Positions 6,454 to 15,287 of a stretch of 64,000 bases of DNA are shown piece after piece. The stretch comes from Candidatus Yanofskybacteria bacterium RIFCSPHIGHO2_01_FULL_44_17. GTDB lineage: Bacteria > Patescibacteriota > Minisyncoccia > 2-02-FULL-40-12 > IGHO2-01-FULL-4-A. The notes beneath the pieces were generated by a model. The model was not told the origin of the DNA and searched no databases. It saw only the letters and a list, made by a program, of their open reading frames with translations. Where the stretch lies: NCBI GenBank assembly GCA_001794195.1, contig MGJI01000006.1:2650-66649 (forward strand). The letters run 5' to 3'. Each line of letters starts with the position of its first letter. Position 1 is the stretch's first letter. The translations under genes were made by a program, and so were the position numbers.

Positions 6454-6717
6454 ATGAAATATAATAATTTCCATAAAAAATTGGTTAGATATTCCAAGGA
6501 CATCCTGGCTATCGTTTTAATTTTATGGGGAGTGGTCGCCTTTTTAACGCCGTTTACGCCGGGTTCTTGGCTTGTCTTTGTGGGGCTGTTCATTATTTTT
6601 GGCAGAAAGAAAACTCAAGACAGGTTGGCCCGAATAATTGGCAAGAAGTGGTTTGATAAACTTAAGGTTAAAAAGATATTCGAAGAGATACCCACAAAAC
6701 TAGACGGCAAAGCATGA
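6454..6717 (+). CDS. small membrane protein
   Basis: Two TM helices. ATGA overlap with the following gene suggests translational coupling. Confidence 0.4.
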   Translation: MKYNNFHKKLVRYSKDILAIVLILWGVVAFLTPFTPGSWLVFVGLFIIFGRKKTQDRLARIIGKKWFDKLKVKKIFEEIPTKLDGKA

Positions 6718-7508
6718 CAGAAACAATACTCGAAAAACTAGCTAGATTTGCCCAGCGTATCTGGCTTCCGAGATTCAAGAGAATCGAGGATGCGATTGGA
6801 TATAAGTTGATATTTCGGAATATTCCGAGTGATTATATAAACGGTTGGATGGCCTGTGAAATGACCAAGACCTGGAAGAAGTTTGGGCTTGACGTAGAAA
6901 GGGGCGCGAACTATTTCACCATGGGCAGTATTCACGATGGCGAATCCTCCCGATTCGACCCCGACTCAGTGAAATATCAATCTTGGCTAGGAGGATATAC
7001 CGTAAAGCTGGAGCACGAGGTGAATTGGACACCGGAAGATCATTTTAAACTTGCAGTCGCTGATCAAAACAACTGGCCGAGACACTATGGCGACCCAAGG
7101 CCTGTGACAGATATTGAAGGTTGGAATTTTGTTCCGGTAGGCGAGATCCAAATCGATCAACATTCGGGGCAGCTTTACGAATTTGGCTGTACCACGGATG
7201 ACGATGTTGGAAGTGGCTACAATACAATTAAACTCCGATTTACTTCTGCTTGGATAGCTGCTTCGTTTAATCTTTTAAATCCGGATTTAAAACTAAGAGG
7301 CGACGAATTCAAGCCACGGAAGTCTGACAAGGTGTACGGAAGAGTAAGGCTCTTGGGGTATTTTGCTATTTTTGATATCGCAGAGAGGGTGAAGGTCGTG
7401 CTTTATGGAAACGGATTTATTGACGAAAGAAAACACGTCAATACGTTTACGGTGTTAAAAGATAATCTGCTTAATGCCATAAAATTCTGCGAGATAGTCG
7501 CAGTATGA
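6714..7508 (+). CDS. hypothetical protein
   Basis: 264-aa ORF with 4-bp overlap to the upstream gene. No domain recognised. Confidence 0.45.
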   Translation: MTETILEKLARFAQRIWLPRFKRIEDAIGYKLIFRNIPSDYINGWMACEMTKTWKKFGLDVERGANYFTMGSIHDGESSRFDPDSVKYQSWLGGYTVKLEHEVNWTPEDHFKLAVADQNNWPRHYGDPRPVTDIEGWNFVPVGEIQIDQHSGQLYEFGCTTDDDVGSGYNTIKLRFTSAWIAASFNLLNPDLKLRGDEFKPRKSDKVYGRVRLLGYFAIFDIAERVKVVLYGNGFIDERKHVNTFTVLKDNLLNAIKFCEIVAV

Positions 7509-7560: not shown

Positions 7561-9159
7561 TTATTTCGTTGTCAGTTGGAATTTTTTAATTAGTTCGAAA
7601 TTTTCGGGGGTTCTTTTTATGAAGATTGCCGTGGAGGCGTCGAGGTAGATTAGCGGCCAGTCAGGGTTTTGGGAAATATGGGACAAGAAGGTTCTGGCCC
7701 AGGGGGTCATATCTGTGTGGCCGAAAAAGATGTAGTTGATGCCATACTTCTCGGATAGCTGCTTCCATACTGCCGGGTTCTCCTGCATAGGTTTGTAGAT
7801 TTTTTCAAAAAATTCGATGCTATACGCCTCCGGCCGGCCGTCTACGAACACCTTGAAATCGGGACTTGTCCCGTTAGAAGTAGGGTCTCTTAGAGACCCG
7901 CTAGTTCTAACGGGATACAATTTCCATATTAGGAAACTGCCGATGTCAAAATTATTAAATACCGGCCCGTGAATTTTGTTTTCTTTGACAAAATTTAAAG
8001 CTGAACCTGCGCCTACTGGAATTGCCAGGCCGAATCTGTTTGGCCTGCCTGCCCAGCGCTGGAAACCGTTATTGACCGCACTCTTGATTAGGAGTAATTC
8101 TGCCAAGATTAAAATTGAGAGCAGACAGGCCTGAACGCCTCGTCTGGAAAGGATTCGTTTGGGTTGACAAGAGGCGAAGTTGAGAGTGACTATTGGTAGA
8201 AAAACCAGAGCATAGGGGCCGAAATTCCTGATCATTTTGCCGGCGAGGATTGTGAAAACGCTGGCCGCCAGAAACTCAAACACGATCTTTTTGTGGTTTT
8301 TGAAGGCAATAACAAAACTAATGATAAGCACAATCAGCGACAACTCAAATAGATAGATGTCACGCAGCTGGACGCCGTAATCAGTCAGGAAAAATATGTT
8401 CTGGTTTTCAACGATGCTGTAGCCGTAATCGCGTAAGATATTAATCGGTGCCAGCGCTCCCTTGATGAAATTGGGATTGATTAGGGTAGCGACGCAGGTG
8501 GCGATGAATATTTTTAGAACTAATCGGGCTTGTTCTTTTTGGTAGGCAAGGCGGTCAATCAGGAAAAATAAAAGAAGAGCCGGTCCCAGTGCGAAATAAA
8601 TATGCATATTGGTCCAAAATATCTGTAAGATCGGCAGGGCATAGAGCCATTTGTGCTCGTTGGAGTATTTAGCGCGCAAAATAGCAAATAAAAAGTAAGA
8701 CAAGAATAAATAACTGAATATCTCCGGCCTGACGTCGGTCCGACTTGAAAAAATAAACAGTGCCGGAATACCGGCCAGCAAAAATGGCCAACCGCCGGCA
8801 GTTTTCGGCAAGGATTTAAAAATCAAAAAGAAGGCCGCGACTATGACTCCGGCCTTGAAAACTATTAGGCCCTTAAGACCGATTAGGCCATTTAGCAAAT
8901 AAAAAACCACCTCGCTCAGCCAGTGGTGGTTTATGAAGGGATGGGCCGGTTCGGTAAAAGAAAAAAGATTGGTCTTATAGACGTTTTTTGTTTCCCAAAT
9001 AATCTGGCCCGATTTCAAATGCCGTCCGATGTCTTGGTTTATCGAGTTTAGGCTATGGACCGATAAAGCGGCGACCAGGACAAAAAATAGAATTATGGCA
9101 ATCCAGCGAAGAATCCTCATGTTTGATATTGTATCAGAAATCAGCCCACCCCTCATCAT
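7561..9159 (-). CDS. polytopic membrane protein, probable GT-C-type (ArnT/PMT-like) glycosyltransferase with C-terminal soluble domain
   Basis: About 12 predicted TM helices followed by a ~150-aa hydrophilic C-terminal domain. This architecture is typical of GT-C enzymes. Confidence 0.45.
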   Translation of the reverse strand: MMRGGLISDTISNMRILRWIAIILFFVLVAALSVHSLNSINQDIGRHLKSGQIIWETKNVYKTNLFSFTEPAHPFINHHWLSEVVFYLLNGLIGLKGLIVFKAGVIVAAFFLIFKSLPKTAGGWPFLLAGIPALFIFSSRTDVRPEIFSYLFLSYFLFAILRAKYSNEHKWLYALPILQIFWTNMHIYFALGPALLLFFLIDRLAYQKEQARLVLKIFIATCVATLINPNFIKGALAPINILRDYGYSIVENQNIFFLTDYGVQLRDIYLFELSLIVLIISFVIAFKNHKKIVFEFLAASVFTILAGKMIRNFGPYALVFLPIVTLNFASCQPKRILSRRGVQACLLSILILAELLLIKSAVNNGFQRWAGRPNRFGLAIPVGAGSALNFVKENKIHGPVFNNFDIGSFLIWKLYPVRTSGSLRDPTSNGTSPDFKVFVDGRPEAYSIEFFEKIYKPMQENPAVWKQLSEKYGINYIFFGHTDMTPWARTFLSHISQNPDWPLIYLDASTAIFIKRTPENFELIKKFQLTTK

Positions 9160-9529: not shown

Positions 9530-9558
9530 TTGACTTTGCTATGATAATTTGATATAAT
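9530..9558 (+). promoter_or_regulatory. sigma70 consensus promoter (TTGACT - 17 nt - TATAAT)
   Basis: TTGACT at 9530-9535, a 17-nt spacer, and TATAAT at 9553-9558, directly upstream of a ~200-nt hairpin-rich leader and the GC-rich ORF at 9773. Confidence 0.55.
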
Positions 9559-9772
9559 TAAGAGTGTAAATTAGCTCTTTTATTTAAGATACTTGCGATT
9601 GATGAATGAAGATGAAGAAATACTGAGGGTACCAAGCCGAATGTAAGTCAGTCATAGCCAAAAGCCCTTGATTTGCCAAATGGCAGAGGAGATCTTCTGG
9701 CTATGACTGCGACTACGAAGCGGTCTAGCAGAAGCAGCGTGCCCATCAAGGGCGAGCTGCAAAGAGGATATC

Positions 9773-10435
9773 ATGAATGAATATTGGAACCTAGGTGTTG
9801 GGCCAGCTCAGAAGTTTGAGAAAGCCCTGAACCGAAACGGTTGTACCCCAGCCGAACTGGACACTTTGTCCAGTGGCAGTCTTCTTAGCCAAGTCCGGCG
9901 AGTCATCGCTGGGCAAGCCAAGATCGTCCCAGTCGAACCGCAGATGGACCGCTGGGTTACCATCAACTCCACGACCATCGCCGTTAACCTCGGCGCCACG
10001 CCGAGACTACCTTTCGATGGAGCCCGAGTCGAGAGCCACATCGGTAATGGCTGGGCCATCGTCGAGAGGCGGGCGGACGGATTGTATGTGAATGACCACA
10101 AAGTCATCCTGCATCTGTCCAAGCGTCAAATAGTCGGTAGTAAGTTCGTCCGAGGCTACGAACTCCGCAGAGAGCTGACGGGCAAGCCCGTCCTCAACGC
10201 GAACATTCTGGATGCCCTCTACGACAATCCCCACCTCATTCCCGAGGACTGGAAGAAAGATGAGCATGACAACATCCGCTACATCTTCTTCTGGGGCAGC
10301 ATCTATTGCGATGTTGACGGCCGCCTGTGTGTCCGCGCCCTCTGCTTCCGCAGCAGTGCGTGGGGCCGGAGCTGCAACTGGCTCGTCGACGACTGGCTCG
10401 GCCCCGACCTGGCGGCTTCGCTCGCAAGTGTCTGA
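9773..10435 (+). CDS. hypothetical protein encoded in a GC-rich (foreign-composition) island
   Basis: Complete 220-aa ORF with strong G/C third-codon-position bias (gtc atc ctg cat ctg tcc ... ccc gtc ctc aac gcg) in an otherwise AT-rich genome. Spurious ORFs appear in several other frames because of the GC content. No domain recognised. Confidence 0.6.
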   Translation: MNEYWNLGVGPAQKFEKALNRNGCTPAELDTLSSGSLLSQVRRVIAGQAKIVPVEPQMDRWVTINSTTIAVNLGATPRLPFDGARVESHIGNGWAIVERRADGLYVNDHKVILHLSKRQIVGSKFVRGYELRRELTGKPVLNANILDALYDNPHLIPEDWKKDEHDNIRYIFFWGSIYCDVDGRLCVRALCFRSSAWGRSCNWLVDDWLGPDLAASLASV

Positions 10436-10493
10436 ACTTGGGGCTTAGCCCCTCTGATCTTTTTGACCCTTGGGATTTTATCCTTGGGGTCCT

Positions 10494-10525
10494 GCCCGCA
10501 CGGTAACGTGCGGGCGTTTCTTTTT
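10494..10525 (+). terminator. Rho-independent terminator
   Basis: GCCCGCACG-GTAA-CGTGCGGGC stem-loop followed by GTTTCTTTTT. A smaller GGGGCT-T-AGCCCC hairpin plus T-run lies at 10440-10465. Confidence 0.7.
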
Positions 10526-10586
10526 CAAAAATTCATGATAAGATCACCCTGGTAGTAGGAATATGTATACAAATTGGAAAATAAAA

Positions 10587-11843
10587 TTAGAGAATAGCTT
10601 CAATTTGTTCAAGCATGCGGCGGAGGATGAATTTGTGGAGGACGGTTTGGTGGGCTTGGATGCCGAGTTCGCGGCGGAGAGTTTCGTCTCCGACGAGTTT
10701 GTTTATGGCTTTAGCAAGAGCTTGTGGATTGGCCGGCGGCACGATGAGGCCGTTCTTGCCCAGCACCACTTCGCCTGGTGGCGAAGTGGTGCTGGGTGAA
10801 CCATTTTCAATTACTTCAGGATTGGCGCCGACAGCGGTGACTACAACGGGTAGTTTGGCAGACATCGCTTCAAGTACCGCCCAGGGAAAGCCTTCTTTAA
10901 CTGACGGCAAGACAAAAATATCGAAAGCCTTGAGGTATCTATAGGCATCAACGATCTTTCCTGCAAGAAAAATTTTATTTTCTAATTTTAGATTATTAAT
11001 TCTAGATTCTAGATTCTGTCTTTCTGGACCATCGCCGATTATAACTAGGTTGTAGGTGTTGGGCTTTAGGTTATAGGTTAAAATCCGGAAAGCGTTGATT
11101 AAATACCCTAAACCTTTGGTTGGGTAAAAGTTGGCGATGGTGCCGATAAGCAGACCGGAGTGCAAAAAGTTTGCGTGCTTCTGTGACGATGGCAAGTTCT
11201 CATATAGGCGGATTTTAGCTTCGTCTTTTTCTAAAAACTCAAGTTTGTACGGGTCTATGCCGTTGTGAACTAGAATTATCTTTTCGCGCGGTTTGATGCC
11301 GAATTTAATTGCTTGGTCGTAATCGTGCTTATTGTTGACAATAATGTAGTCTTTCCACGATGCGCTGATTTTCTCTAACCAGCGGTAAGCCAGTCGTTTC
11401 CACCATGGCCATGGGTCGTTGAATGTCCAGCCGCCGATTCTATAGATAGTTTTTAGGTTGTAGGTTGTGGGTTGTAGTAGTTTGGCGGCGAGAGAGCCGA
11501 TAAAGCCGGCCTTGGAGCTGTTTAGAAATAGCGTATCGGGCTCGAAATCCTTAATGAGTCTTTTGATTTCAAAAACAGCGGTGATGTCACTGAAAACATT
11601 GGGGTTCCGACGCAAGTGTTTGGCGGTCAGATATTTTATACCCGCGGGCAGTATAGCCGCGATTTCCTTGTTACCGTCGGTTCCACCGGCCACGGCCAGT
11701 TCAAAACGATTGGGATCAAGATGGCCTGCCAACTGTGCCAGAAACATCTGAGCTCCGCCCAATTCCGACTGGGTAATTATAAATAAAACCCTCTTTTTTG
11801 GGTTGTTGGTCTGCTGGTTTATGTGGTTGCTTATGCTATCCAT
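10587..11843 (-). CDS. GT4-family glycosyltransferase carrying an in-frame 46-bp palindromic insertion
   Basis: GT-B/GT4 C-terminal motif EGFPWAVLEAMSAKLPVVVTAVGANPEVIENG...GLIVPP. The NG/GLIV core is interrupted by SPSTTSPPGEVVLGK, which is encoded by a perfect hairpin. Confidence 0.8.
   Translation of the reverse strand: MDSISNHINQQTNNPKKRVLFIITQSELGGAQMFLAQLAGHLDPNRFELAVAGGTDGNKEIAAILPAGIKYLTAKHLRRNPNVFSDITAVFEIKRLIKDFEPDTLFLNSSKAGFIGSLAAKLLQPTTYNLKTIYRIGGWTFNDPWPWWKRLAYRWLEKISASWKDYIIVNNKHDYDQAIKFGIKPREKIILVHNGIDPYKLEFLEKDEAKIRLYENLPSSQKHANFLHSGLLIGTIANFYPTKGLGYLINAFRILTYNLKPNTYNLVIIGDGPERQNLESRINNLKLENKIFLAGKIVDAYRYLKAFDIFVLPSVKEGFPWAVLEAMSAKLPVVVTAVGANPEVIENGSPSTTSPPGEVVLGKNGLIVPPANPQALAKAINKLVGDETLRRELGIQAHQTVLHKFILRRMLEQIEAIL
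10755..10800 (-). repeat. 46-bp palindromic insertion element (copy A) inside the GT4 coding sequence
   Basis: On the coding strand: TTCACCCAGCACCACTTCGCCACCAGGCGAAGTGGTGCTGGGCAAG. The stem is 17 bp with a 4-nt loop. It is flanked by AATGG / AACGG. Confidence 0.75.
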
Positions 11844-11866
11844 TTATGGCAATATAATATAGTAAA

Positions 11867-13045
11867 ATGGAGGGAAAAGCAACACAAAGAATTTTGGTAT
11901 TTGCGACTAATTATCTGCCCCATATTGGAGGAGCAGAATTGGCATTCCATGAAGTTGCGATACGTATTCCCGAAGTAACTTTTGACCTCATCACCTCTCG
12001 CCTTAAAGACCCGTTCGATCCCAAGAAACTTTTGCCTTCCGAGGAAAAGTTCAAAAACGTGAACATTTACAGAGTAGGTTCGGGTTTTAATCTGGCCAAG
12101 CTAGTGCTACCTAAAAGCTTGTATCCCATAGCCGCCTACAACAAGGCCACGGAACTATACAAAAAATTCGGCCCGTATAAAAAGATTTATGCCCTGCAGG
12201 CTTCGCAGGGCGGCGGAGCGGCCTGGTTGTTTAAGATTTTTAATCCGGAGGTCACGCTCATATTAAACTTACAGGAAGGCAAGGATTTTAAAAAACAAGG
12301 GTCGCTGATTAATTTTTTCCGGAGCTTAATTATAAAAAAAGCAGACGCTATTGTTGCCATAAGTAGTTATCTTAAGGAGTACGCCAAAAAAATTAACAAG
12401 AAATCCAAAATTCACGTAATACCCAACGGAGTAGATATCGGACACTTTTCAACCGAGTACAGCTATGGGGAGCTATCGGGATTGTCCGATCAGCTTGGGA
12501 TTAAGCCAGGCGATAAGGTTATTGTCAGCGTCTCACGCCTGGTTCCCAAAAATGGCATCGATATTTTGGTAGAGGCGTTTGCCGAGGTATGTAAACTTAA
12601 AAATAAAAGTTATAAACTTCTGTTACTTGGCGATGGGCCGGAAAAGGAAAATCTCAAATCTCAAATCGCAAGCCTCAAACTTGAAAATCAGGTTATTTTT
12701 GCGGGGACCGTTGGGCATGCCGAGCTACCTAAATATTTGAAGATCTCTGATGTTTTTGTCAGATCGTCTCGATCGGAGGGTTTGGGTAGTTCATTCTTGG
12801 AAGCTATGTCGGCCGGTGTGCCGGTAATAGGAACCAGGGTTGGTGGAATCCCAGACTTTCTAAAAGATCGCGAAACGGGTCTTTTTTGCAAAACTGATAA
12901 TCCTGTTGATTTGTCCAAGCAAATCTCTCGTATTTTAACTGACGAAGAATTGCGTGCTAAGGTGATTAAGAATGGGCGCAGTCTGGTTGTCGAAAATTAT
13001 GATTGGGACAAGATAACCAAAAGCTTCAAAGAGCTTTATTTATGA
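11867..13045 (+). CDS. GT4-family glycosyltransferase
   Basis: GT4 signature RSSRSEGLGSSFLEAMSAGVPVIGTRVGGIPDFLKDRETGLF. Divergently arranged with the gene at 10587. Confidence 0.8.
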   Translation: MEGKATQRILVFATNYLPHIGGAELAFHEVAIRIPEVTFDLITSRLKDPFDPKKLLPSEEKFKNVNIYRVGSGFNLAKLVLPKSLYPIAAYNKATELYKKFGPYKKIYALQASQGGGAAWLFKIFNPEVTLILNLQEGKDFKKQGSLINFFRSLIIKKADAIVAISSYLKEYAKKINKKSKIHVIPNGVDIGHFSTEYSYGELSGLSDQLGIKPGDKVIVSVSRLVPKNGIDILVEAFAEVCKLKNKSYKLLLLGDGPEKENLKSQIASLKLENQVIFAGTVGHAELPKYLKISDVFVRSSRSEGLGSSFLEAMSAGVPVIGTRVGGIPDFLKDRETGLFCKTDNPVDLSKQISRILTDEELRAKVIKNGRSLVVENYDWDKITKSFKELYL

Positions 13046-14106
13046 CCTCTATTTTAATAGCCGAATACACAAGGCGTTCAAACGAAATAGGCAGGCCGTC
13101 TTACGGCCAGATTTTGTCGCAGGGACTTTCCAGCGACTTTAAAATCTATTCTTCCGGTAGTTTTTTAAAGATATTAAGCTTGGCGGGCGAGGTAGATACT
13201 ATTTTTGCTACCACCCCGGTGGGCTCAGGTTATGCTGCCTATTTGGCGGCAAAGTTGCGGAAGAAAAGTTTTTTGTTAAGAGTTGACGACGATTATGCCT
13301 GGAGATCAGCAATTGAGAGCGGCAAGACATATCTTTTGGCTAGTGACTTCCAGAAATTTCCAAAAAAAGGGCATGCCTCTGGCACATTCAAACGACAGGC
13401 TCGGATTTGTGCGCAGGCAGATGTTATTATCGTGCCGTCTAAATTTATGTCAGAAATCGTAAGCGGCTGGGGGGTGATGGCGGAGAAAATAAAAATAATA
13501 GCCGACCCTATTAATTACGGGCTGACCGATATAAGCAAAGAGGAGGCAAGGAAAAAAATTGGTATTCCCGGTAATTTGCTGATATCTGTCGGGCCGCTTG
13601 TTCCATGGAAGGGCTTCCGCATGTTGGTTAAACTGATGCCTCAGCTCGCCGCAATCAACCAGTTTTTTCGTCTGGTTATAGTGGGTGATGGGCCGGAACT
13701 AAAAATTCTCAAGCCGATGATCAAAAATCTAGGTCTTGATAAAAAGATTTATTTGATGGGCAGAAAGAGCGAAGAAGAATTGGCTCTGCTTTTGGCGGCT
13801 TCAGACGTGTTTATTTTGAACAGCGGTCACGAGGCTTTCCCCAGCGAAACGATAAGGGCTATGATGGCTGGTCTGCCGGTTATCACAACGGCCGTCGGCG
13901 CAAATCCGGAGGTTATTGAACAAGGGGAGAACGGATTTATGATTAAGTACAATGATGAATTCAATTTAGTAGAAGCCATTAAAACGGTATGGCAGACTCC
14001 GCTACTGCGGGAGAGGTTTATTGAAGAAGGAAAGAAGACGGCGCAGCGGTTTAGTCTGGAAAAAACGATGGAAGAAATTAAAAAAGTTATAGGTTATAAG
14101 CCATAA
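13042..14106 (+). CDS. GT4-family glycosyltransferase (start placed at the ATGA overlap; ORF-track start 13003 is probably spurious)
   Basis: Motif ...AMMAGLPVITTAVGANPEVIEQGENGFMIKY. It shares TAVGANPEVIE with the 10587 gene but lacks the palindromic insert. Confidence 0.75.
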   Translation: MTSILIAEYTRRSNEIGRPSYGQILSQGLSSDFKIYSSGSFLKILSLAGEVDTIFATTPVGSGYAAYLAAKLRKKSFLLRVDDDYAWRSAIESGKTYLLASDFQKFPKKGHASGTFKRQARICAQADVIIVPSKFMSEIVSGWGVMAEKIKIIADPINYGLTDISKEEARKKIGIPGNLLISVGPLVPWKGFRMLVKLMPQLAAINQFFRLVIVGDGPELKILKPMIKNLGLDKKIYLMGRKSEEELALLLAASDVFILNSGHEAFPSETIRAMMAGLPVITTAVGANPEVIEQGENGFMIKYNDEFNLVEAIKTVWQTPLLRERFIEEGKKTAQRFSLEKTMEEIKKVIGYKP

Positions 14107-14111
14107 GCAAT

Positions 14112-15287
14112 ATGCGACTTCTAATGATATCAGGTGCGGGCGCGAGTTCTTTGGTCCAAGGCAAGCGGGGCGCGTTTTATAGTACCCTTGAAGAGTTCCA
14201 TAAGTATTGGGAGCGGATTGATGTAATATGCCCCGCTGTCACAACTATCAACTACCAACTACCAACGACCAACTACTTTGGCAATGTTTTTATCCATCCG
14301 TCGCCACGGCCGTTAATAATGCAGCCATTGTGGATTTTGAAGAAAGGCCGCGAATTGTACCGTGAACACAAATTTGACTTAATAACCGTCCACGAGTTCC
14401 CCCCGTTTTATAACGGAATCGGCGCGAGGTTACTTTGGAATAAAATCCATGTTCCGTATGTTTTGGAAATTCATCATGTTCCCGGATACCCTAAGGCTGC
14501 AGGGCTTAAGGAGCGGCTGTATAAAATTGCGATGCAACGGTTCATAAAATACGATGTTGCCAAGGCAAGGGCTGTGCGTGTGGTCAATCAGCATCAGGTT
14601 CCTGATTTTTTGACCAATGCTGGGGTTCCGGCCGAAAAAATAAAATATATCCCCTCGGCCTATATTGATCTAGAGACATTTAGGCCGATGCCAGAAGTTG
14701 AGAAGAAATATGATTTAGTTTTTGCGGCCAGGCTTGAAAAAAATAAAGGCGTGGGCTTATTATTGGATGCGGTTGCCAGCCTTAAGATCCAAGTCCCCAG
14801 TCTTAACCTACTGATTATCGGCGATGGTCCGGAAAGACAGAATTTGGAAGAAAGAATAGAGGCCCTAGGGTTAGAAAACAATGTCATTTTGACCGGCTGG
14901 TTGCCAACAGTCGGTGATGTGGCGCGAGCCTATAATAGCGCCAGGATTTTTATCAACCCCTCTTTAAATGAGGGCGGACCCAGAGTGGCGCTGGAAGCTA
15001 TGGCTTGTGGTTTGCCCGTAATTACAACGCCAGTAGGGTTGATGATTGATGTAATAAAAAACGGTTCACCCAGCACCACTTTGCAAGATAGCAAAGTGGT
15101 GCTGGGCAAGAACGGCCTGATTACCAATTGGGAGCCGGAAGATATGGCCAATAAAATCTTGTATTTGCTTAATGACAGACAGCTGCAAGTACGGTTTTCC
15201 GCTGCCAGCTTAGAATTGGTCAAACAATTTGAAAAACAGTCAGTAATTAGAAACTACGCTCTAAAATTACGCGGCCCCGTAACCTAA
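14112..15287 (+). CDS. GT4-family glycosyltransferase carrying an in-frame 46-bp palindromic insertion
   Basis: NEGGPRVALEAMACGLPVITTPVGLMIDVIKNG-[SPSTTLQDSKVVLGK]-NGLITN. Imperfect AACTACC heptamer repeats at 14243-14277 encode TINYQLPTTNY. Confidence 0.75.
   Translation: MRLLMISGAGASSLVQGKRGAFYSTLEEFHKYWERIDVICPAVTTINYQLPTTNYFGNVFIHPSPRPLIMQPLWILKKGRELYREHKFDLITVHEFPPFYNGIGARLLWNKIHVPYVLEIHHVPGYPKAAGLKERLYKIAMQRFIKYDVAKARAVRVVNQHQVPDFLTNAGVPAEKIKYIPSAYIDLETFRPMPEVEKKYDLVFAARLEKNKGVGLLLDAVASLKIQVPSLNLLIIGDGPERQNLEERIEALGLENNVILTGWLPTVGDVARAYNSARIFINPSLNEGGPRVALEAMACGLPVITTPVGLMIDVIKNGSPSTTLQDSKVVLGKNGLITNWEPEDMANKILYLLNDRQLQVRFSAASLELVKQFEKQSVIRNYALKLRGPVT
15065..15110 (+). repeat. 46-bp palindromic insertion element (copy B) inside the GT4 coding sequence
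   Basis: TTCACCCAGCACCACTTTGCAAGATAGCAAAGTGGTGCTGGGCAAG. The 16-bp stem is CCCAGCACCACTTTGC/GCAAAGTGGTGCTGGG with loop AAGATA. It is flanked by an AACGG direct repeat (15060-15064 and 15111-15115). Confidence 0.75.

Follow-up and report, generated by a model that had tools for sequence, protein, structure and literature searches.

The window, i.e., the whole 64-kb stretch of DNA that was analyzed, contains a GC-rich gene that encodes a 220-amino acid protein and is bordered by its own regulatory sequences (Table 1). This ORF had first been noted for its G/C-biased third codon positions, and comparison of GC and GC3 confirmed that it is the composition outlier of the window. The ORF has a GC content of 0.579 and a GC3 of 0.706, compared with a GC content of 0.427 for the whole window; GC along the ORF ranges from 0.53 to 0.63 (200-nt windows) and is approximately 0.33–0.45 on both flanks, and the GC3 of the 17 other genes is 0.39–0.53, such that none reaches the value of the target gene. 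C, A, and T occupy 0.48, 0.12, and 0.18 of its third positions, as opposed to 0.24, 0.24, and 0.31 in the other genes. The TTGACT-17-TATAAT promoter proposed by the initial annotation matches the consensus at 11 of 12 positions and has in addition the TG of an extended −10 element. With this promoter, a long structured 5′ UTR, and a terminator, the gene is indeed the self-contained unit it had been taken for, and the data support its description as an accessory transcription unit from a retroelement cassette of patchy distribution. A convergent glycosyltransferase gene adjoins the 3′ remains of the unit.

Table 1. Features of the DGR target-gene unit (positions are those of the window)
Feature	Positions	Strand	Description
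Sigma-70-type promoter	9530–9558	+	TTGACT, 17-nt spacer, TGaTATAAT (extended −10)
Structured 5′ UTR (predicted)	9565–9772	+	~208 nt; predicted transcription start
Leader motif	9587–9598	+	AGATACTTGCGA; complementary to 10422–10433 (VR 3′ end and first base of the stop codon)
Conserved leader helix	9648–9710	+	17 bp; arms 9648–9664 and 9694–9710; apical part variable
Second leader hairpin	9734–9760	+	In MFE and centroid fold; directly 5′ of the Shine-Dalgarno sequence
Shine-Dalgarno sequence	9763–9768	+	AGAGGA
DGR target (variable-protein) gene	9773–10435	+	220 aa; homology to genes ending in a verified VR
Parts of the protein			Residues 1–60, variable helical N-terminus; 61–177, conserved β-rich core; ~178–219, VR
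Variable repeat (VR) without template	10306–10430	+	Aligns with VRs and TRs of relatives
3′ UTR with CUU(U)RG repeats	10436–10492	+	ACTTGG, CTTAG, CCTTGG, CCTTGG; four CTTRG
GC-rich hairpin and T tract	10493–10526	+	Stem GCCCGCACG, loop GTAA; intrinsic terminator, candidate DGR target-site hairpin
Stub of TR-RNA gene	10536–10570	+	Extended −10 TGATAAGAT at 10536–10544; first ~20 nt GGTAGTAGGAATATGTATAC at 10551–10570

The protein is OGN05634.1 (locus tag A2831_00420). No domain had been recognized in it, and it has no match in Pfam, NCBIfam, PHROG, or PADLOC (0 families of the PADLOC defence models at E ≤ 1). A homology search resulted in 143 homologs at E ≤ 1e-3, and the family comprises 3,373 clusters at 50% identity. 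The initial annotation had pointed to high-GC phages or Actinobacteria as a source of homologs, but all of the homologs come from Patescibacteria-type MAGs, which is the lineage of the window itself, and 2.9 million viral contigs contain merely two distant relatives of the protein. A repeat of the gene's final ~125 nt lies 300–450 bp downstream in 27 of 75 related loci, and 433 of the 467 differences between the copies in these loci are located at adenines of the downstream copy. RT and/or Avd were identified by tblastn in 26 loci, and ORFs downstream of the target in one locus (L001) matched RVT_1 (E = 1.2e-22) and bAvd (E = 7.7e-11). The repeat pairs are the VR (gene end) and template repeat (TR, downstream copy) of a diversity-generating retroelement (DGR), in which error-prone reverse transcription rewrites one end of a bacterial gene. 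The window protein is 36–64% identical to proteins of the loci with VR/TR pairs. Intact relatives have the cassette order target, ~215-nt structured RNA, TR, avd (on the opposite strand), and RT, and the RNA that precedes the TR has its own extended −10 promoter and 53 predicted pairs, 41 of which show compensatory changes. Within sibling protein clusters, variation is almost confined to the last ~40 residues. Solo copies are common: of the 56 family loci in which the sequence extends 1.5 kb or more past the gene, 35 are without TR, RT, or Avd inside the ~3 kb fetched downstream. A single TR shared by the solo copies L028, L043, and L064 of one Doudnabacteria MAG was considered and rejected, as the non-A divergence is too great.

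The family shares its lineage with the targets of the Patescibacteria/CPR DGRs (clade 2, Roux et al. 2021, PMC8144416; architecture B3, Wu et al. 2018, PMC5758913). Clade 2 is confined to Patescibacteria and its targets have no known domains (PMC8144416); like the window protein, clade 2/B3 targets are small, without a recognizable domain or transmembrane segment, and have their VR at the extreme C-terminus. The cassettes of the homologs, with the gene order given above and A-specific VR/TR mismatches, are a further likeness. Unlike these cassettes, the window copy is without TR, avd, and RT, retains only the ~35-nt stub, and has a VR that is invariant across assemblies. In an AF2 model of the protein (pLDDT 89.4), the VR forms the C-terminal β strands E185–193, E196–203, and E212–217 of a compact α/β domain, and the VR is likewise placed in C-terminal β strands in the DGR variable proteins with a C-type lectin fold (Mtd, 1YU0; TvpA, 2Y3C). 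A Foldseek search of the PDB and BFVD with the model gave no significant match, and a sequence profile search of the PDB gave a chance match only.

The richness in Cys and Trp that had been remarked on at the C-terminus of the window protein is real and corresponds to the DGR variable region. The VR contains 12 adenines in 125 nt, compared with about 29–36 in most of the relatives' TRs, and the majority of its codons have C in the third position; the Cys-rich C-terminus is a consequence of this A-poor and NNC-codon-rich sequence. Aligned with heterologous TRs, the window VR differs at 60% of the TR-adenine sites and at 13% of the other sites, a pattern that reads as the footprint of past adenine mutagenesis. 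The sequence from 9530 to 10530 was searched against the 64-kb window for a cognate TR by blastn (word size 7) without finding a second copy, and the L001 RT and Avd, used as tblastn queries, gave only chance matches in the window (E > 3). A pattern scan of metagenome contigs for the cognate TR recovered nothing and missed the VR itself as well, so this collection does not include the sample and the scan carries no weight for or against a TR. The protein sequence is identical on 12 contigs (at least five assemblies), with 0–1 SNP per 6.6 kb, and the VR-restricted variants that sibling clusters do have are absent among these contigs at the assembly level; as the contigs may have been assembled repeatedly from related samples and represent one clonal population, this invariance is weaker evidence than it appears.

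Beyond the terminator, the window retains the start of an adjoining TR-RNA gene, which indicates that this copy formerly had its own cassette. The stub aligns with the promoter and the start of the ~215-nt pre-TR domain of intact cassettes (alignment A2), and the pattern GGTANTAGGN{0,2}AATAYG occurs once in the window (10551–10565) and in none of 100 window shuffles. No copy of the TR-upstream RNA domain beyond the stub was found in the window. Longer 3′-truncated remnants of the domain are present in five other solo loci (L004, L019, L009, L011, and L050).

Together, the gene's homology to verified DGR targets, the A-specific differences between VR and TR in the relatives, the stub, and the invariant VR make it probable that its product is the variable protein of a Patescibacteria-type DGR that has lost its TR, avd, and RT, and whose VR no longer appears to be diversified. 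Given the absence of TR, RT, and Avd, the stub, and the A-poor VR identical on 12 contigs, the window copy is a solo DGR target and probably a frozen one. In the intact relatives, the RT would copy the TR RNA with misincorporation opposite adenines, and the cDNA would take the place of the 3′-terminal ~125 nt of the gene, rewriting ~40 residues at the C-terminal end of a presumed ligand-binding domain. In the window, TR, avd, and RT would have been removed by deletion; the strong promoter, structured leader, 3′ UTR repeats, and terminator hairpin persist with the target gene, as does the stub of the TR-RNA gene. The gene may still be expressed as a binding protein of fixed specificity, and the leader helix and 3′ elements may contribute to mRNA stability or translation and/or may in the past have aided retrohoming. 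Against a frozen state, the ORF, promoter, VR 3′ end, and hairpin have remained intact, as they would in a still-usable target.

The same elements could be expected if the gene were a still-active remote target, with a DGR elsewhere in the genome providing TR RNA, RT, and Avd in trans. DGR targets that are not adjacent to a cassette have been documented (PMC5758913), the frequency of solo copies in the family leaves room for such service, and the preserved elements include the 3′ boundary of the VR (CTCGCAAGT) and the downstream GC hairpin. We consider this explanation unlikely, as siblings with intact cassettes from similar samples vary in the VR only, whereas the window protein is identical on all of its contigs, and as the stub is a trace of a cassette that belonged to the window copy itself. 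In addition, inside the VR/TR homology region the window departs from the family at two scaffold residues with at least 90% conservation, as consensus R179 is C and consensus P213 is L. The codon for consensus R179 is without adenine in the relatives' TRs that were read, so homing would restore the first of these residues.

Near-consensus promoters of the form TTGAC(A/T)-N16–18-TA(T/C)A(A/T)T are located 5′ of the target gene in 38 loci, including the window, and are followed by leaders of 34–214 nt. The leaders of relatives have a common layout, with a 5′ CTCTTT... motif and an ACTTGCG motif followed by a long helix, another hairpin, the Shine-Dalgarno sequence, and ATG; in most relatives, the hairpin at the position of the second leader hairpin is directly 5′ of AAGGAG. 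For the window, folding of 9565–9785 gave an MFE of −67.8 kcal/mol (z = −3.92), and none of 200 shuffles was as stable. Of the two long hairpins that the initial annotation had placed in the leader, the one formed by GTCAGTCATAGCC.../...GGCTATGACTG is real (arms 9649–9664 and 9694–9709, 94% complementary). The 17-bp helix at this position is conserved: in an alignment of 23 loci (A3), 94.6% of the cells are paired compared with 79.6% in shuffles (0 of 500 reach the observed value), compensatory changes are seen in 12 of the 17 pairs, and slid controls pair at 38–57%. The many G–U pairs indicate that the structure belongs to the sense-strand RNA. The other proposed hairpin, a long-range pairing of GCCCTTGAT with ATCAAGGGC, is used in neither the MFE nor the centroid fold, where its 3′ copy sits in the local second hairpin; the probability of a 9-mer complement within 200 nt by chance was estimated at ~8%.

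The leader may also contact the end of the gene. The leader motif and the VR end form an inverted repeat (I4) that matches at 13 of 15 positions, and RNAduplex predicts 12 stacked pairs between them (−19.2 kcal/mol), with the cognate end being the best of 33. Across the family, a leader (CTA)ACTTGCG is found opposite CGCAAGT(TAG), and cognate pairs score above non-cognate ones with permutation P values of 0.03 and 0.08, statistics that rest on 15–33 loci. This pairing is suggestive only.

The suggestion that the leader is a riboswitch or attenuator, which would tune expression of the target gene by ligand or translation, has in its favor a long conserved 5′ UTR, a covarying helix, and a second hairpin that touches the Shine-Dalgarno sequence; moreover, the 3′ arm of the second hairpin recurs just before the ATG in several relatives, such that alternative pairings are possible. 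Strongly structured as it is, the leader belongs to no Rfam family: the Rfam 15 covariance models gave no match near the gathering score and none at E ≤ 10 for the window leader, and for the leader and TR-upstream domain of relatives there was none in 20 loci at the gathering threshold and none in five loci at E ≤ 0.1. Its main feature is a single long helix with a variable apex, without the conserved internal loops or junction of a ligand pocket, and there is no terminator in the interval between leader and ORF. Regulation of this kind is therefore decidedly improbable.

The sequence downstream of the solo target is likewise structured (3′ UTR folding z = −6.73) and contains repeats found throughout the family. 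Among 71 loci, CTTRG occurs at a mean density of 1.58 per 65 nt, compared with 0.13 on the opposite strand and 0.11 in the background, and CTTAG, CTTTG, and CTTGG are enriched 10–34 fold in the 3′ UTRs. Pairing of the CCTTGG repeats with the two GAYYAMGGUU hairpin loops of the TR-upstream RNA was rejected for want of covariation, as loci in which both loops read ...ACGG... keep their CTTGG/CTTAG repeats. The GC-clamp terminator that had been described, with its GTAA loop and T tract, was borne out: the stem-loop at 10493–10516 has 10 pairs (8 GC) followed by TTTCTTTTTC, making it an intrinsic (Rho-independent) terminator, and relatives have a similar CCCGCAC...GTGCGGG hairpin in the same place. 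The second small 3′ hairpin described alongside it exists in the window (10440–10452) but is not a conserved feature of the family.

In the BPP-1 model, a GC hairpin downstream of the VR is required (PMC3240598). The window resembles the BPP-1 mtd target site (IMH and GC hairpin/cruciform; Guo et al. 2011, PMC3240598) in having its VR at the 3′ end of the gene, a TR/VR homology that ends in a GC-rich stretch beside the stop codon, and a downstream GC-rich hairpin with a 9–10 bp stem and a 4-nt loop. It differs in that the hairpin is 58 nt past the stop codon, compared with 4–34 bp in phage DGRs (PMC3240598), in that the loop is GTAA and not GRNA (PMC3240598), loops being unconserved among the relatives, and in the CUU(U)RG tract between VR and hairpin; the T tract also makes the hairpin look like an ordinary terminator. 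The BPP-1 DGR RNA consists of 20 nt of avd, the TR, and a 140-nt spacer (Handa et al., bioRxiv 10.1101/2023.10.23.563531). As in this RNA, the TR of the relatives lies within a structured non-coding RNA, with a stem-loop after it. Unlike in BPP-1, the large structured domain of the relatives is 5′ of the TR and has its own promoter, the TR is followed only by a short terminator-like hairpin, and avd is antisense; the ~215-nt domain is absent from Rfam and is represented in the window by the stub only.

The covarying leader helix, the complementarity of leader motif and VR end, the CUU(U)RG repeats, and the uncatalogued ~215-nt RNA are family-wide features that are possibly new. We tentatively suggest that clade-2 B3-type patescibacterial DGRs use RNA parts unlike those of the Bordetella phage model, with the 5′ ~215-nt domain replacing the downstream spacer and cis elements of the target aiding recognition or the coupling of expression to retrohoming; these lineage-specific elements would be the covarying 17-bp 5′ UTR helix, the leader motif that pairs with the stop codon and VR end, and the tandem CUU(U)RG repeats between VR and hairpin. 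If this is true, the solo gene in the window would be a fossil in which the target-side elements survive; another possibility is that it has been exapted and constitutively produces a binding protein of fixed specificity. The RNA features outside Rfam near the cassettes provide testable handles on target recognition and cDNA priming in the least-studied major DGR lineage, and frozen VRs are natural snapshots of selected binding specificities. Because 35 of 56 loci have no TR, RT, or Avd nearby, RT-anchored surveys overlook solo targets, and the DGR-shaped repertoire of ultra-small bacteria exceeds the catalogues. An unannotated hypothetical-protein island thereby becomes interpretable as a DGR variable protein stranded by the loss of its retroelement.

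The initial annotation proposed that a single foreign gene (a moron, toxin, or anti-defence gene) had recently been acquired as a module and owes its high GC to a high-GC donor. This reading could draw on the outlying GC3 (0.71), the unit's own promoter and terminator, and the protein without a recognized domain, but is highly implausible, as the homologs are all from Patescibacteria-type MAGs with only two distant viral relatives, the PADLOC and PHROG searches are both without matches, no flanking direct repeats, tRNA, integrase, or mobility genes were found around the unit, and the GC excess is family-wide and limited to the target gene. Apart from its atypical composition, the target gene does not have the hallmarks of a horizontally acquired island or phage moron. 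In 63 of 71 relatives, the part of the gene outside the VR is richer in GC than the flanking sequence, and it correlates with host GC (r = 0.57), so the excess is no evidence of recent foreign acquisition. Mean GC in intact cassettes is 0.535 for the target, 0.40 for Avd, 0.39 for RT, and 0.46 for the upstream flanks, and since RT and avd are AT-rich, high GC was rejected as a trait of a horizontally moving cassette. Codon bias due to high expression was also rejected, as rplK and nusG, the neighbors of the target in L004, have GC3 values of 0.33–0.39 compared with 0.545 for the target. High GC3 is restricted to target genes. A local GC3 spike in a low-GC Patescibacteria genome can signal a DGR target gene instead of horizontal transfer. 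Candidate causes of the target-specific C excess in third positions include homing-associated biased gene conversion or a constraint passed down from NNC-rich templates. Avoidance of adenine is not supported as the source of the high GC, since T is depleted in the third position as well and the excess is chiefly of C.

The 220-aa ORF, its GC and GC3 peak, the promoter, the structured leader and the terminator hairpin described in the initial annotation are all present. The gene has a GC content of 0.579 and a GC3 of 0.706, compared with 0.427 GC for the window and GC3 values of 0.39–0.53 in 17 other window genes. Third-position C (0.48 versus 0.24 in the other window genes) makes up the main part of this excess, and GC in 200-nt windows is 0.53–0.63 over the gene and ~0.33–0.45 in its flanks. 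The protein had no match in Pfam, NCBIfam, PHROGs or PADLOC, and its exact sequence is on record as a "hypothetical protein" of a Candidatus Yanofskybacteria MAG. All 143 homologues at E <= 1e-3 are unnamed or labelled hypothetical, and a profile search expanded the family to 3,373 clusters at 50% identity. In the alignment, the N-terminus is variable and helical, the core (residues ~65–175) is well conserved, and in the C-terminus hypervariable positions alternate with conserved Trp, Leu, Val and Arg residues.

Coordinates of features at the window locus and, where named, in related loci (L numbers)
Feature	Position	Strand	Detail
Promoter TTGACT-17-TATAAT	9530-9558	+	11/12 consensus positions, TG extension
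Conserved leader motif AGATACTTGCGA	9587-9598	+	complementary to TCGCAAGTGTCT, 10422-10433
Leader main hairpin, conserved 17-bp helix	9648-9664 with 9694-9710	+	covariation
Target ORF	9773-10435	+	220 aa
Variable repeat (VR)	10306-10430	+	12 A in 125 nt
GC hairpin and T tract	10493-10526	+	10-pair stem, loop GTAA
Stub, extended -10	10536-10544	+	TGATAAGAT, directly after terminator
Stub, RNA-domain start	10551-10570	+	GGTAGTAGGAATATGTATAC
RNA domain upstream of template repeat	L001 3806-4021; L003 3780-3999; L005 3738-3958		examples, 26 loci in all; window stub 10536-10570

The C-terminal alternation of conserved and hypervariable positions led us to search 75 related genomic loci for repeats. 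In 28 of these, the final ~125 nt of the gene recur 300–450 bp downstream with 80–94% identity, and 433 of the 467 differences in the 27 repeat pairs analysed fall on adenines of the downstream copy. In one locus, L001, the genes further downstream encode an RVT_1 reverse transcriptase (RT) and, in opposite orientation, a bAvd-like accessory protein (Avd). Together with these genes, the adenine specificity identifies the repeats as genuine VR and template repeat (TR) pairs of diversity-generating retroelements (DGRs). The order target, TR, avd (opposite strand) and RT marks CPR-type cassettes; architecture B3 comprises 90% of CPR DGRs (Wu et al., PMC5758913). The relatives' cassettes fit DGR clade 2, which is restricted to Patescibacteria and has targets without recognisable domains (PMC8144416). 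We consider the window gene very likely to be a previously unannotated target gene of a Patescibacterial DGR, left orphaned when its cassette was deleted. Elsewhere in the family, tandem copies of the VR-bearing domain form adjacent genes (630-792, 1060-1239 and 1862-2024 of the viral IMG/VR contig L076) or occur within single long proteins (P0150, 481 aa with three matched stretches; P0154, 804 aa with four).

The 64-kb window contains no second copy of the 3' end of the gene and no RT or Avd, and it also lacks a copy of the RNA domain found ahead of the TR in relatives. What is present is a stub that aligns with the extended -10 promoter and first nucleotides of this domain in intact cassettes; the motif occurs once in the window and was matched in 0 of 100 window shuffles. 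A convergent glycosyltransferase gene ends at 10587, from which we infer that a deletion removed the remainder of the cassette. Similar decay, with the domain truncated at model positions 54–126, is seen in five relatives (L004, L019, L009, L011 and L050), and among the 56 loci for which 1.5 kb or more of downstream sequence was available, 35 lack a TR, RT or Avd in the roughly 3 kb fetched.

Compared with heterologous TRs, the window VR differs at 60% of TR adenine sites and 13% of other sites, indicating past diversification. Two scaffold residues with at least 90% conservation across the family are altered (consensus R179 to C and consensus P213 to L); because the arginine codon contains no adenine in those TRs of relatives that were read, homing would normally be expected to reinstate it. 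A single protein sequence was found on 12 contigs, which differ by 0–1 SNP per 6.6 kb and come from at least five assemblies that may not be independent; within five sibling clusters, by contrast, variation is almost entirely limited to the final ~40 residues. The gene is probably a solo target whose VR is frozen; less probably, a DGR at another site in the genome serves it in trans.

The GC excess was initially read as the sign of a foreign single-gene module such as a moron, toxin or anti-defence gene. This reading is only partly right: every homologue with a named organism is from a Patescibacteria-type MAG, and the excess is not a mark of recent transfer, as target genes without their VR exceed their flanks in 63 of 71 loci (mean +0.066) and their GC follows that of the host (r = 0.57). 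Nor is it a property of the whole cassette, since mean GC in intact cassettes is 0.535 for the target, 0.40 for Avd, 0.39 for RT and 0.46 for upstream flanks. The trait, family-wide and confined to the target, thus belongs to the target genes. Codon bias of highly expressed genes was rejected (GC3 of 0.33–0.39 for rplK and nusG in L004 versus 0.545 for the target). Simple adenine avoidance is not supported, given that T3 is depleted as well. Within the VR (70% GC), loss of adenines adds to the excess locally. C3-rich codon usage spans the whole gene, VR and beyond (9773-10305 in the window; all target genes of L001–L074), in contrast to the AT-rich avd and RT of the same cassette and nearby rplK and nusG. 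None of the explanations tried accounts for this gene-wide C3 excess, and the target-specific GC3 bias merits follow-up.

Target genes of 38 loci, the window among them, have a near-consensus promoter followed by a long leader. The ~208-nt leader has no Rfam match and folds better than 200 of 200 shuffles (z = -3.92). In its 17-bp helix, 94.6% of alignment cells are paired versus 79.6% in shuffles (0/500 reach 94.6%) and 38–57% in slid controls; 12 of the 17 pairs show compensatory changes, and frequent G-U pairs indicate a sense-strand RNA. A second hairpin abuts the Shine-Dalgarno sequence. In leaders of L001, L004, L036, L038, L042, L030 and L031, its 3' arm (e.g. GAACGTGTC or ACACGT), some 50 nt ahead of the ATG, recurs directly in front of the start codon (...ACGTGTCATG); as read from the sequences, alternative pairings could mask or expose the start region. 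Strand-specific CUU(U)RG repeats lie between the stop codon and terminator hairpin, with four copies of CTTRG in the window and a family mean of 1.58 per 65 nt versus 0.11 in background (individual 5-mers enriched 10–34 fold). Pairing of these repeats with hairpin loops of the TR-upstream RNA was rejected for lack of covariation. The terminator hairpin resembles the GC hairpin required by BPP-1 (PMC3240598), but is further from the VR, has no GRNA loop and could pass for a normal terminator. We infer, as a best guess, that the leader and 3' elements affect translation or the stability of the mRNA, and they may also have a role in retrohoming.

The leader motif can form 12 stacked pairs (-19.2 kcal/mol) with TCGCAAGTGTCT, which comprises the 3' boundary of the VR plus the initial base of the stop codon. 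Throughout the family, (CTA)ACTTGCG lies opposite CGCAAGT(TAG), with apparent co-changes in L055 (stop TGA with TCA) and L010 (stop TAA with TTA). Cognate pairs are modestly better than non-cognate pairs (P = 0.03 and P = 0.08), making a family-wide interaction suggestive. This complementarity is VR-specific, since the TR terminates in GCAACT instead of GCAAGT.

Immediately upstream of the TR, 26 loci carry a ~215-nt element that has an extended -10 promoter of its own. RNAalifold predicts 53 pairs, 41 with compensatory changes; two hairpin loops carry GAYYAMGGUU, accompanied by an invariant ACUUGGU, and Rfam gave no match at the gathering threshold or E <= 0.1. In the Bordetella model, by contrast, a large structured RNA lies downstream of the TR (bioRxiv 10.1101/2023.10.23.563531), suggesting that this lineage may use a permuted arrangement in which the upstream RNA may replace the downstream spacer RNA. 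These conserved RNA features around the Patescibacterial DGR lineage merit follow-up. In L002 (3755-4100), a complete domain follows the target gene, and the A-rich TR-like sequence next to it mismatches the adjacent VR; the TR may have been swapped, or the cassette may serve a different target.

Upstream of the target are genes for a 264-aa protein (6714-7508, +) and a 532-aa protein (7561-9159, -), with no Pfam family on record; long hydrophobic stretches suggest that the latter is a multi-pass membrane protein. The downstream run of glycosyltransferase genes (10587-15287) places the solo target in a cell-envelope glycosylation neighbourhood. Within the first of these coding sequences (10587-11843, -) lies a near-perfect 43-nt palindrome (10756-10798, TTGCCCAGCACCACTTCGCC-TGG-TGGCGAAGTGGTGCTGGGTG), which contributes a GSPSTTSPPGEVVLG-like segment and raises local GC to a second peak (0.55–0.57 at 10600-10900). 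Its arms occur nowhere else in the window, and a small hairpin element may have inserted here.
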